This document shows positions 6,176 through 51,252 of a DNA stretch of 64,000 nt, piece by piece. How positions within the stretch are numbered: position 1 is the stretch's first letter; the number at the start of each line of letters is the position of its first letter. Below the pieces are notes generated by a model. The model searched no databases, was not told where the DNA came from, and saw nothing but the letters and a program-made list of their open reading frames with translations. This stretch comes from Octopus vulgaris (taxonomy: Eukaryota): the NCBI GenBank assembly GCA_951406725.2, contig OX597835.1:15128001-15192000 (forward strand). Reading direction: 5' to 3'. The position numbers and the translations under genes were made by a program.

Positions 6176-8258
6176 ATATATATTTTTCCACTGTTTATAT
6201 ATATATTTTTTACTGTTTATATGTTTGTACTGTCGTTACCGTCTTGCCTTTTTTTTACCCCTCCGCGACAAGATCTCAGAATTTTAATTGATTTGCTTGT
6301 CTCGGGAAGGAATTTTTCATTCGAAGTATACGTCTCGCTTTTATCCTTCGAAACGTTTAGTAGATGAAACTTTAGCGACTGAAGAAGGGGATTTTTCGTT
6401 GTGCTTATTGTCCTGTATCTCCTTTTTTTGCTTGTCTTGTTCCTTGGTTTGTGTCTATGTTTTTCGTCTCTCTATGTGTTCGACGTCCTTTTGGTGTCCT
6501 GTACACATATATGCGTGTGTATGTACATGTAGAGGTAGGTACGTACATACATGTTTATATATATGCATATATTTTATTAACATATTATACGACTAAACGC
6601 ACGCACCCTATTAAGTAAGATTGTTCTGTTTATCAAGTTCGCCTTGATATTAACTCTCACGCGACTCTGCCTCTTTCTTTCTTTCTCTCCCATTCCCTTT
6701 TTCGTCCTTTTTCCCTCACTTAACTTGTCTCTTCCTCTCTCTCTCTCCCCCTCACTGTTCTTCATGGTCTCCTCGCACCATTCCCCTTCTTCTCTCTCTT
6801 CCTCTTGCTCCTCCTCCCCCATTCCCGTCGTCCATCTGCGACGTACTTCCGTCGTAACTGCTTTCCCGTCTTTCCTCACCTGCCTTCTAAGGCCGCTGGT
6901 CGACATCTTCCTCTCTCGTCGTCCACTATAATCCAGCGTTTGCAATACTTTTTTCGTCTGGCGTTAACAGCCCTTCTTATCTTGTTCTCCTTGTCCTGTC
7001 TCTCACTGTTATATATTTATTTTTCCACTGTTTATATATATATTTTTTACTGTTTATATGTTTGTACTGTCGTTACCGTCTTGCCTTTTTTTTACCCCTC
7101 CGCGACAAGATCTCAGAATTTTAATTGATTTGCTTGTCTCGGGAAGGAATTTTTCATTCGAAGTATACGTCTCGCTTTTATCCTTCGAAACGTTTAGTAG
7201 ATGAAACTTTAGCGACTGAAGAAGGGGATTTTTCGTTGTGCTTATTGTCCTGTATCTCCTTTTTTTGCTTGTCTTGTTCCTTGGTTTGTGTCTATGTTTT
7301 TCGTCTCTCTATGTGTTCGACGTCCTTTTGGTGTCCTGTACACATATATGCGTGTGTATGTACATGTAGAGGTAGGTACGTACATACATGTTTATATATA
7401 TGCATATATTTTATTAACATATTATACGACTAAACGCACGCACCCTATTAAGTAAGATTGTTCTGTTTATCAAGTTCGCCTTGATATTAACTCTCACGCG
7501 ACTCTGCCTCTTTCTTTCTTTCTCTCCCATTCCCTTTTTCGTCCTTTTTCCCTCACTTAACTTGTCTCTTCCTCTCTCTCTCTCCCCCTCACTGTTCTTC
7601 ATGGTCTCCTCGCACCATTCCCCTTCTTCTCTCTCTTCCTCTTGCTCCTCCTCCCCCATTCCCGTCGTCCATCTGCGACGTACTTCCGTCGTAACTGCTT
7701 TCCCGTCTTTCCTCACCTGCCTTCTAAGGCCGCTGGTCGACATCTTCCTCTCTCGTCGTCCACTATAATCCAGCGTTTGCAATACTTTTTTCGTCTGGCG
7801 TTAACAGCCCTTCTTATCTTGTTCTCCTTGTCCTGTCTCTCACTGTTATATATTTATTTTTCCACTGTTTATATATATATTTTTTACTGTTTATATGTTT
7901 GTACTGTCGTTACCGTCTTGCCTTTTTTTTACCCCTCCGCGACAAGATCTCAGAATTTTAATTGATTTGCTTGTCTCGGGAAGGAATTTTTCATTCGAAG
8001 TATACGTCTCGCTTTTATCCTTCGAAACGTTTAGTAGATGAAACTTTAGCGACTGAAGAAGGGGATTTTTCGTTGTGCTTATTGTCCTGTATCTCCTTTT
8101 TTTGCTTGTCTTGTTCCTTGGTTTGTGTCTATGTTTTTCGTCTCTCTATGTGTTCGACGTCCTTTTGGTGTCCTGTACACATATATGCGTGTGTATGTAC
8201 ATGTAGAGGTAGGTACGTACATACATGTTTATATATATGCATATATTTTATTAACATA
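6176..8258 (+). repeat. 837-bp tandem repeat, ~2.5 copies, Penelope pseudo-LTR/retrozyme-like
   Basis: Identical ORFs recur at 6288, 7125 and 7962 (period 837). Bounded by (TA)n. Each unit holds an HHR-like core. Confidence 0.9.
6343..6392 (+). ncRNA. Putative permuted (type II order) minimal hammerhead ribozyme; copies at 7180-7229, 8017-8066 and 8482-8531 (-)
   Basis: ATCCTTC-GAAA-CG-TT-[imperfect stem I TAGTAGATGAAACTTTAGCGA]-CTGAAGA-A-GGGGAT. Stems I and II are imperfect. Confidence 0.4.
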
Positions 8259-8289
8259 TATATATATATATATATATATGTATGTATAT

Positions 8290-8905
8290 TATGTTAATAA
8301 AATATATGCATATATATAAACATATATGTACGTACCTACCTCTACATGTACATATACACGCATATATGTGTACAGGACACCAAAAGGACGTCGAACACAT
8401 AGAGAGACGAAAAACATAGACACAAACCAAGGAACAAGACAAGCAAAAAAAGGAGATACAGGACAATAAGCACAACGAAAAATCCCCTTCTTCAGTCGCT
8501 AAAGTTTCATCTACTAAACGTTTCGAAGGATAAAAGCGAGACGTATACTTCGAATGAAAAATTCCTTCCTGCGAAAAGCAAATCAATTAAAATTCTGAGA
8601 TCTTGTCGCAGAGGGGTAAAAAAAAGCAAGACGGTAACGACAGTACAAACATATAAACAGTAAAAAATATATATATAAACAGTGGAAAAATAAATATATA
8701 ACAGTGAGAGACAGGACAAGGAGAACAAGATAAGAAGGGCTGTTAACGCCAGACGAAAAAAAGTATTGCAAACGCTGGATTATAGTGGACGACGAGAGAG
8801 GAAGATGTCGACCAGTGGCCTTAGAAGGCAGGCGAAAAAGGACGGGATAGCAGTTACGACGGAAGTACGTCGCAGATGGACGACGGGAATGGGGGAGGAG
8901 GAGCA
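8290..8905 (-). repeat. Inverted copy of 7643-8258, forming a palindrome with ~615-bp arms
   Basis: Direct reverse-complement match with a few substitutions; ~30-bp (TA)n spacer. Confidence 0.95.
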
Positions 8906-8932
8906 TGTATATATATATATATATATATATAT

Positions 8933-9134
8933 ATGAGTATAATTATATTTAGGGTTCAGCAAAAATTTGCTTCACCACATACCGAAATTTAGAAATAGCA
9001 GTTAAAACTAACTATTTCAGTACCCTAAGAAAATCTCCCAACAGTATTGGGATAGTTAGTTTTAACTGTTTTTTCTAAATTTCGGTATGTGGTGAAGCAA
9101 ATTTTTGCTGAACCCTAATTCTAATTATACTCAT
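8933..9134. repeat. Fold-back palindrome, ~83-bp arms
   Basis: ATGAGTATAATT...GTTAAAACTAACTAT (8933-9015) is the near reverse complement of 9051-9134. Confidence 0.9.
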
Positions 9135-9660
9135 AATTATAAAATTTATGTATAAATTTACCGATAATGGTTCTTTTGACATACCGAACTACTTGGTAAA
9201 ATTATCAATTAATTAATTAATTAATTAATCTTACTCTTTATTATTATTATTATTATTATATATATATATATATATATATATATATATATATATGTATATA
9301 TATATATATATATATATATATATATGTGTATATATATATATAAATATATATATATATATGTATGTATATATATGTATGTATATATATATATATATATATA
9401 TGTATGTATATATATATATGTATATATATACATACATATACATACATATATATATATATATATATTTATATATTATATAAAAGGGCTTAGTAAAATAAAT
9501 TACTTTGCCACATACTGAACTCATTAGAAATAGTAGCTAAAAAAACTTTTTAAAACTATTTCTAATACTTAAAGAAAATCTCTCTCATATAGTGTTTGCT
9601 CAATTCAACTCACGAAAGTATGGGGGTAAAGACATTAAAAAATCAGATGCAAAGGTTGTT

Positions 9661-49351: not shown

Positions 49352-49396
49352 CAACACACAAATTTCTACACATGAACCCGGAGTTTCTACCCTTGA

Positions 49397-49764
49397 CAGG
49401 TCGCTTCAACCGTGTTTTCTGACGTGAATTTGCTACCCAGGTTTCGGTTAAACGAATTTTCCATGCTGACGATAAACATAGGAAAATTCATTGACCTACT
49501 TATATATATATATATATATATATATATATATATATATATATATATAATGGCGGTGCCCCAGCATGGCCACAGCCCGTGCAGGTCGCTTCAACCGTGTTTT
49601 CTGACGTGAATTTGCTACCCAGGTTTCGGTTAAACGAATTTTCCATGCTGACGATAAACATAGGAAAATTCATTGACCTACTTATATATATATATATATA
49701 TATATATATATATATATATATATATATATATATATATAATGGCGGTGCCCAGCATGGCCACAGC
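49397..49764 (+). repeat. 181-bp tandem duplication including a (TA)n tract and a SINE tail
   Basis: CAGGTCGCTTCAACCG at 49397 and 49579; each unit ends GGCGGTGCCC(C)AGCATGGCCACAGC. Confidence 0.92.
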
Positions 49765-49923
49765 TCGTGACCTGAAACTAGAATCAATCAATCAATCAAT
49801 CATATATATATATAACATTATTCTTCTACCTTACTACTTCCGTCTTTCAATATGTGACCTCGTGAGTACCACTGGCGATTTTTTTCCTCTGTCTTCCCTT
49901 CTCGGGATATTTTCTTCTCCTAT

Positions 49924-49958
49924 GTTTCCGACGAAGAGCTCAGCTCGAAACGTTAAAC
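49924..49958 (+). ncRNA. Minimal hammerhead variant motif in cassette ~49820-50060
   Basis: GTTT-CCGACGA-A-GAGC-TCA-GCTC-GAAA-CG-TT-AAAC. U4 replaced by C; downstream TTCCTGAGCGT shared with the 37848 cassette. Confidence 0.65.
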
Positions 49959-51252
49959 CCTCCTTCTTCCCTTCTTTCCTGAGCGTCCAATAATACTTTA
50001 TTTGTTCCACGTCCTTGCGTTGTTGCGTTTTTTTTTGTTTTCTTGTTTGGATTAACTAACTATATATATATATATATATATATATATATATATATATATA
50101 TATATATATATATATATATATATATATATATATATACACTCACATGCATACATAAAAGCACATACATAAATATTTACATTCTTAGATAAATAAATATAAG
50201 ACGGAAGTAAAAGATATGCATATTAAAGTAAGAAAAACTCAAGATAAGTTGAAACTGGTAACGAAGATAATCGGAAACAAATGTGAGCCTATGTATGTTC
50301 CTAGGTGGTTTCAAGTCTGCATCTGTTCATTATACTTTTATCCCGCTACTTTCCACATCTGTTGTATGTATGGAGAGGTCATTATCTAGTTTTTCTTACT
50401 TAATTACAATTGACAGAGCATTTTTTCTGGTTGCCCTTATTAATTAATTGAGCTAAAAATACGCGGGTTTTATCTCTCTCTCTTGTAACCATTCTCGCCA
50501 CCCTTAACTTTCTTGAGGTTTATATTTTTTTTTTTTTTCCAACTGAAGGAAGCATATCATTTTCACTTGATCTGCTGAAATTTTTCCACAGAACATTCTA
50601 GAAACATATAAAACTGATCTCAATTATCGTTGCAACTTTCTACCCTACGGAATCATCTGAGTTAACTGCTTAAACGTTCATGTAACAGTGTCATCCCACC
50701 CCTATCTCTCTCCATCTCTATCTCTTTCTTTCTCTTGCTATTTCTTACTCTCCCTCACTTTTCTCTCTCTTTCCCTCTTCTCCCTTCATCACTTTCCCAC
50801 TCTTTCTCCCTCTCTTGTTGTCTCCTTTTCTCCCTCTCTCTCACACCCTCTCTCTTTCACCCTTTCTTTCTCTTTCTCTTGCCTGCCATTGCTTATTCTC
50901 TCTCCTTCTCTCTTCTCCTCTCACTCTCACACCCCTTTTTTCCCTCTCTCTCTCGTCCTCGTCCTCCCTCCACCTCACCCTCACCCTCCCACTCTTTCTC
51001 TTACTCTATTTTTGTCTCTCTTTCTCGCTCTCTTTTTCTCTCTAACTTTGATCAATATCTTCCCACCAATAGACAGGAACGCTGTACTCCGACTATTGTA
51101 GCAATTTGATTATGCTTCATCGATTTTCGTAGACGATAAAGATGTCAGTATTCTAACCAAGGGTAATTTCCCGTTTTCAATATTTCCTGTCTGCTCCAAA
51201 AGTTTAATGTTCTGATAGTAACATTATCTTCATCAAACGTTGGTGTGAACCC

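Follow-up and report, generated by a model that had tools for sequence, protein, structure and literature searches.

The 64,000-nucleotide (nt) stretch of Octopus vulgaris DNA analysed here (GenBank assembly GCA_951406725.2, contig OX597835.1, forward-strand positions 15,128,001 to 15,192,000; hereafter the window, in which positions are counted from the first letter) is microsatellite-rich animal DNA, for which a first-pass annotation had listed hammerhead ribozyme cores at 6343 (four copies), 9661, 11696, 37477, 37848, 48896/49275 and 49924. Hammerhead-like boxes do lie at every one of these positions, but they are not of one kind: five sites have the type I order, the pair 48896/49275 is incomplete, and at 6343 the blocks run from the cleavage site (S) through GAAA (G) to CUGAAGA (C). 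This S-G-C site, carried by a tandem repeat that we call family A, is our main subject; the module appears to be new in its setting, and the six other cassettes add nothing beyond published work.

The family A array occupies positions 6176..8263 on the plus strand and consists of a 414-nt 3' piece (6176-6589) and two 837-nt units (6590-7426 and 7427-8263), ending in (TA)n; consecutive 837-nt periods differ at 1 position. A second, 5'-truncated copy (8284..8905, minus strand) stands tail to tail with the array across a TA tract and shows 15 differences in 622 nt, with 0 within the 118-nt module that contains the putative ribozyme. The cores are located at 6379, 7216 and 8053 on the plus strand and at 8495 on the minus strand, and the module recurs at 7143..7260 and 7980..8097 (+) and, inverted and letter-for-letter identical, at 8451..8568 (-). 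Three complete modules follow one another in tandem at a spacing of 837 nt, at least two consecutive units being the mark of a retrozyme-like repeat, and the predicted ribozyme site lies ~190 nt upstream of the family A 3' end. The start of the 837-nt unit (6590-6670, +), with one frame change, recalls what we take to be the last codons of a Penelope-like GIY-YIG open reading frame (ORF), with no Pfam match; a spurious reading frame across site 6343 has no protein relative.

When all six block orders were scanned, the single match type in the window was S-G-C, present in all four family A copies, and the core is intact in 4/4 copies (CUGAAGA, GAAA, the A15.1-U16.1 pair and H17, in a GUC triplet). 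All parts of the module at 6343 are on the plus strand. Block S (6330..6339) comprises a stem III strand, the GUC triplet (6332-6334) and a stem I strand; a 3-nt linker (6340-6342) connects it to block G (6343..6356), with a helix II strand, GAAA (6350-6353) and the other stem III strand; and block C (6374..6400) contains the second stem I strand (6374-6378), CUGAAGA (6379-6385), an extra A, the contiguous helix II strand (6387-6390) and a fourth-helix strand (6394-6400). Stem I (6335-6339 with 6374-6378) and stem III (6330-6333 with 6353-6356) have 5 and 4 Watson-Crick pairs, respectively, and the contiguous stem II (6346-6349 with 6387-6390) has 4 base pairs (bp), two of them G.U. Between blocks G and C lies the shared fourth-helix strand (6363..6369), containing GAUGA, for which a helix of 7 bp is possible with either the downstream strand (6394-6400) or an upstream one (6315..6321) that is variable in family A. 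Further upstream, a strand that we call X (6306..6311) forms 6 Watson-Crick pairs with helix II strand 6344-6349, and downstream of the core a UGUAUCU box (6414..6423) offers positions 6417-6423 for pairing with 6386-6392 as a tail hairpin. The predicted cut falls after 6334, with equivalents at 7171, 8008 and, on the minus strand, 8540.

The first-pass annotation had described the four copies as a minimal motif with a self-palindromic ACGT, a description that does not survive, since GAAA precedes CUGAAGA and the ACGT pairs with an upstream ACGT. A minimal hammerhead in type II order, with ACGT paired to itself or within a dimer and a cut at GUU (6357), is very improbable: although GAAACGUU resembles Penelope-type motifs, a loose type II descriptor is passed and the tandem copies would permit dimers, stem I would form 3 of its 4 pairs, the second position being mismatched, stacking is -3.8 versus -9.3, loose type II matches are frequent in shuffles (mean 0.84 per window), and the relatives described below keep the S-G-C pairings. 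An S-G-C match with stems of 5/4/4 pairs, by comparison, occurred in 1 of 600 shuffled windows, and one in any non-circular order in 4 of 600. Such a rate would still produce tens of matches in a large genome, yet we give next to no credence to a chance match in the window, because the rate leaves out the 3-nt linker, the fourth helix, X, GAUGA and UGUAUCU, and because a pattern taken from 6343 retrieved three unrelated retroelement families that pair alike.

This pattern, applied to metagenomes, prescribed the core, an ACGU in each stem III strand, the spacing and one G-C pair, and left stem I and further stem II pairing free. It returned 37 loci, 20 of which pair 4-6 bp in stem I, the other 17 (here the controls) pairing 0-2 bp. 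The 20 pairing loci constitute three families, namely 17 dispersed copies from two samples (module, for example, at L001:1474-1592), L027/L035, and L019 (L019:1474-1595). Across all four families, family A included, Watson-Crick pairing is kept at stem I pairs 1-4 and X pairs 2-5 while the letters differ, so that covariation between the families is seen for stem I and the X helix, proximal stem III being fixed by the pattern. Two boxes outside the pattern, GAUGA in the linker from G to C and UGUAUCU at 22-28 nt beyond the core, each occur in 18/20 family loci and 0/17 controls, and both are present at 6343; their sharing by the window and two of the families and their absence from the controls argue for a common origin. 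In the 17-copy family the common sequence stops ~40 nt past the core. Two of its loci, L002 and L004, are only ~100 nt long: they start 6-7 nt before the match, just before stem III, run to the 3' end and are without X.

Proteins encoded next to the module connect these families to retrotransposons. Eight of the 20 family loci, versus 0/17 controls, match the reverse transcriptase (RT)/nuclease proteins retrieved with the L027 ORF; at six loci (L014, L019, L025, L027, L035 and L037) an ORF ends 33-123 nt upstream of the motif, and at three (L002, L019 and L023) a further ORF starts 218-380 nt downstream, a head-to-tail layout. The matched proteins are single-ORF RTs of fish, lancelets and bivalves, and they carry a C-terminal motif that presumably marks a restriction-like nuclease as in the R2 group (HERO clade, HERO/Zebulon). 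Resemblance to RT-bearing proteins identifies an R2-group/HERO ORF upstream of the module at these six loci; none was found in the window. In L027/L035, the stop codon of one frame directly follows the predicted cleavage triplet, where a cut would deprive the mRNA of its stop codon; of 87 related proteins, 10 terminate at this point (e.g., P0002, P0035, P0051 and P0096), and the S block therefore seems to be widespread in fish elements. Three animal retrotransposon families end in the same hammerhead-like module, a trait that could be general in this clade. No cephalopod names appeared among the matches listed for relatives of the L025 ORF (120 of 205) or of the L027 ORF (120 of 142). Where the GAAA and CUGANGA blocks were matched in prokaryote or viral sequence, an S block never accompanied them (0/143 and 0/12 matches). 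Family-specific patterns had no match in viral or metagenome contigs and the general pattern none in viral contigs, wider patterns gave only unpaired matches in the prokaryote and viral sets (one search covered 30 of 64 parts), and protein-guided searches of genome and viral contigs yielded no loci.

An unexpected trait shared by the four families is strand X. In each family the strand preceding GAAA can pair without mismatch over 5-6 bp with a partner located 19-27 nt upstream of the triplet, with letters differing per family, and X is followed by a strand able to form the fourth helix, with 4-6 bp upstream in the relatives. An X of at least 5 pairs within 35 nt was found at 16/20 family loci and 0/17 controls, one control reaching it in a 50-nt search; of the four family loci below five pairs, two are truncated inside X and two are mutated. 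In the window, the 6 pairs of X were reached by 16 of 5000 shuffles of the upstream stretch. That the module is a genuine, conserved S-G-C fold is very probable, and we infer that the conserved form is X-S-G-C, in which the SGC ring is opened between A9 and G10.1 and helix II is better paired from upstream. The A9/G10.1 junction is also the spot where natural hammerheads tolerate an extra base. The X-S-G-C layout falls outside the six published permutations, since the description of type SGC takes that junction as never interrupted (PMC10085705).

For the enzyme that mobilises family A, the sequence features point in two directions: the tail, the TA targets and the partial tandem fit Penelope-like elements (PMC8557442), and the module fits the R2 group. 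The window motif might be a real SGC-type fold that arose independently, by local duplication in a Penelope-like tail, and converged with the R2-group module. X with its extension (6306-6321) is indeed a near-duplicate of the strand after the core (6384-6400), and the long T-rich tail, like that of 37848/49924, has been described for Penelope-like elements together with TA targets and partial tandems; the GIY-YIG-like start of the 837-nt unit would point the same way. We nonetheless consider an independent origin rather unlikely, given that X, GAUGA, UGUAUCU and the tail hairpin are placed as in the relatives, that the relatives also have head-to-tail tandems, and that some HERO families target microsatellites (PMC4640811). 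This alternative concerns origin only and is compatible with cleavage.

Family A is not confined to this locus. At least half of the sampled words of the unit are contained in 20 of 24 listed sequencing runs, from 9 studies of one organism; no RNA run is among those listed, which bears neither way on expression. In the four runs examined in detail, as contigs and with positions 6590-6759 left out as repeats, 2894, 7720, 46 and 37 contigs match the unit, which indicates that family A is abundant, and further copies pass into TA-rich sequence at 7415-7422. Position 7156 (equivalent to 6319, in the upstream fourth-helix strand) is omitted in 97% of the depth in run X17. In run X12, two loose ends would fit the replacement of U-A by C-G in the fifth pair of stem I, and the removal of a tail-hairpin pair would account for a change at 7228 together with a lost base near 7255; in neither case are the two joined on one record, and both are hints only. 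Loose ends at 7254 were considered as an end of family A and rejected, as the position falls inside UGUAUCU.

How such a module might work can be outlined from its pairings. In the complete transcript, the upstream strand X would provide most of helix II and of the fourth helix, with the strand after CUGANGA folding as the tail hairpin or taking over the first helix II pairs. Tandem or read-through transcripts would be cut after each NUH triplet, presumably slowly, because X and the tail hairpin would compete with the contiguous helix II. After the cut, the X helix, the fourth helix and stem III would hold both ends of the unit together, an arrangement that would favour their re-joining into a circle, and copying around this circle from a TA-rich target would produce a near-identical partial head-to-tail array like that of family A in the window. 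Measurable cleavage of the 6343-type module appears somewhat more likely than not; the circle-closure step is put forward tentatively, as something that may well not occur.

Several observations weigh against a cutting ribozyme of this design. Stacking sums favour the X-locked fold (~-30 versus -11 kcal/mol over the exclusive helices), which may be inactive, and we know of no demonstration that a core with A9 unjoined to G10.1 can cut. The contiguous helix II pairs poorly, with 2, 2 and 1+3 bp in the relatives besides the 4 bp with two G.U in the window, and in individual relatives 2-9% of shuffles match the X pairing taken by itself. The 6343 fold does not come out of a folding program limited to nested structures, as is expected for pseudoknots. 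Because the pattern was derived from the window site, ACGU, GAAACGU, CUGANGA and G10.1/C11.1 match by construction and families without the core could not be found; it yielded only three relative families, one a single locus, and the third of them is without UGUAUCU and has AGUGA instead of GAUGA. MAFFT placed the window site and the relatives in different registers, and no R2-group nuclease remnant was detected in the window (best E 0.75). Variation within family A lends the fold weak support: variants at >=4% in the four runs affect 0/53 core and stem positions versus 9/65 other module positions (p 0.004), with position classes drawn after the table was seen, the upstream fourth-helix strand varying and the contigs of this high-copy repeat being short, and the comparison with 33/614 other unit positions is not significant (p 0.06).

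According to the main rival explanation, the module is a hammerhead-derived 3' structure that does not cut, X locking helix II and the whole serving as a handle by which the RT recognizes its RNA. In each of the four families the contiguous strand is a poorer partner than X; the strand after CUGANGA can, in the window and L001, fold back on the shared UGUAUCU box, and the resulting tail hairpin can absorb the strand after the core and engage even G8-A9; moreover, cleavage 90-190 nt short of the 3' end would break the template. We regard such a handle as unlikely, however, because exact CUGANGA, GAAA and the UH triplet are kept in four families in which all stems have changed (the search selected for them), because no core variant reaches >=4% in the four runs, and because published SGC ribozymes with this layout cut at 0.007-0.13 per min (PMC10085705). 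We lean, with some caution, towards 6343 being an S-G-C hammerhead ribozyme that cuts slowly and lies near the 3' end of a high-copy, TA-targeting retroelement, the same module also ending R2-group (HERO-like) retrotransposons of other animals. A broader scenario, in which the opened SGC ring would be an active seventh natural topology and a general 3' part of HERO-like elements in fish, lancelets and molluscs, turning tandem transcripts into circular templates by cleavage and ligation and acquired by a cephalopod-type repeat, is speculative and would rather surprise us.

The remaining cassettes are of a more familiar kind. Type I order with a short stem I characterizes five candidate minimal hammerheads, and not 6343: 9657..9717 (-; core 9709, an 8-nt palindrome, U.U at the stem II base; the cassette is a 280-nt insert flanked by TA tracts), 11696..11741 (-; core 11736, decayed at 10.1 and 15.2, with U15.2 and an A.C mismatch at the stem II base), 37477..37524 (+; variant core 37481 with U3, C4 and an extra A before GAAA, a 7-bp stem II and an 8-nt palindrome), 37848..37882 (-; core 37878, U at position 6) and 49924..49958 (+; core 49928, a C4 variant within a 260-nt insert with TA runs on both sides). 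As the first-pass annotation had noted for most sites, there is an extra base before stem II, which inspection places between positions 9 and 10.1 in 5/5 type I sites. Helix III is perfectly palindromic in 4/5 (the exception, 11696, has U15.2), and the G10.1-C11.1 pair is found in 2/5 (37848 and 49924); single copies may have decayed. Four of the five sites deviate from the core or lack the G10.1-C11.1 pair, which suggests decay, 49924 deviating only at C4. The sites 48896 and 49275, previously listed as a core, have the boxes, but neither copy has both CUGAUGA and GAAA: 48896..48953 (-) keeps CUGAUGA and has a deletion of 10 nt including GAAA, and 49242..49297 (+), of the same family, keeps the GAAA block and is missing CUGAUGA.

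Of what had been proposed for the cassettes as a group, some parts stand and others do not. Nesting in TA tracts holds for 6343, 9661, 37848 and 49924, on one side at 48896 and as short runs at 37477, but not for 11696, which sits between (TACA)n and (TTA)n. The kinship of 37848 and 49924 is borne out by alignment, though blastn at E 0.01 made no link. Motif frequency does exceed that of shuffled sequence, but the enrichment is modest and was measured with two ad hoc descriptors that were composed after the sites were known and each miss some listed sites: the first finds 4 window sites against a shuffle mean of 0.82 (1/200 shuffles reach 4) and the second 3 against 0.41 (3/300 shuffles). Rfam gave 0 matches on the window at the gathering score, and at E up to 10 there was no hammerhead family among the matches listed (150 of 469). 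Beside the four cassettes examined, no Penelope-type ORF was seen (12 frames, no Pfam match above the cut-off). The suggested link to Penelope-like elements suits the type I motifs, which fit the traits in PMC4209133, but not 6343, whose closest relatives found end R2-group retrotransposons with a restriction-like nuclease. Most likely, the five type I sites mark unremarkable Penelope-like element ends, in most cases decayed, and represent known biology, as does the 48896/49275 pair. Separate non-coding families are not needed to explain them, since most single motifs probably derive from truncated Penelope-like elements (PMC4209133).

Other repeats lie beside some of these cassettes. A 153-bp near-perfect inverted repeat (11870-12022, 83% self-complementary), between (TTA)n and (AAT)n, adjoins the 11696 cassette, and a long inverted repeat at 8935-9130 has a left arm that shares 71% of its letters with the 9661 cassette's tail (9472-9582). 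Decayed RT pieces of the long interspersed nuclear element type are located at 25373-25858 (-), 34860-35264 (+) and 55312-56250 (-), with weak Pfam and tblastn matches only for the last, far from the cassettes. Minisatellites or short tandem duplications occupy 19372-19730, 42781-43303, 49397-49728 and 51251-52235, with periods of 17, 184, 182 and 37 nt, respectively.

The first report of non-circularly permuted RNAs dates from 2023 (PMC10085705), and a related SGC fold in high-copy animal retroelements would place this permutation in a biological context, with natural copies in the thousands available for study. If the ribozyme reading is true, a 3' hammerhead would be added to the R2-group retrotransposons, which are under development for gene insertion, and their head-to-tail arrays would gain a testable cause. 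Ribozyme counts in animal genomes may also be too low, given that standard hammerhead models miss the 6343 module. Our literature search retrieved no report of a hammerhead in R2-group (HERO-like) 3' ends, most subscription papers lying outside it, and no SGC-type hammerhead in an animal genome or retrotransposon, the scope here stopping short of most subscription papers, Repbase, Dfam and part of the PMC10085705 supplement.

Four known systems invite comparison. Penelope-like pseudo-long terminal repeats carry hammerheads with an extra base at 9/10.1, a short stem I and a palindromic helix III; these motifs mostly stand alone, probably as truncated Penelope-like elements, their cleavage is weak and dimer-only, and a circle-copying route has been proposed for the elements (Cervera and de la Pena 2014, PMC4209133). 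The five type I sites share the order, short stem I, extra base, palindromic helix III and mostly single occurrence of these motifs, whereas 6343 is not of this type and neither an RT nor a GIY-YIG ORF was seen beside the four cassettes examined. Metazoan non-LTR retrozymes, for which circles have been shown (PMC7229834; see also bioRxiv 10.64898/2026.07.22.740005), resemble family A in their tandem hammerhead units, the absence of an ORF from the unit and low GC content, and supply the model of circle formation from tandem transcripts adopted above, but have type I ribozymes and units of 150-450 bp, unlike the S-G-C core and 837-nt unit of family A. In the R2 group, the ribozyme known for R2 is hepatitis delta virus-like and located at the 5' end (PMC7650587, PMC13725137). 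The ORFs of the HERO-like relatives stop just before the module, and family A in the window shows no such ORF. The closest counterpart is type SGC (HRIMA-1 motif; Eckert et al. 2023, PMC10085705), in which the order is S-G-C and stems I and II are separated by a 3-nt linker and also connected by a fourth helix; it was described from environmental sequence, almost all metatranscriptomes, and from none of the genomes of known organisms. The module at 6343 differs from it in its location in animal genomic repeats, its better helix II partner upstream of the cleavage site and the letters of its stems, but shares the block order, the intact core, the 5-bp stem I, the ~3-nt linker, the extra base after CUGANGA and a fourth helix that bridges the distal ends of these two stems, I and II.

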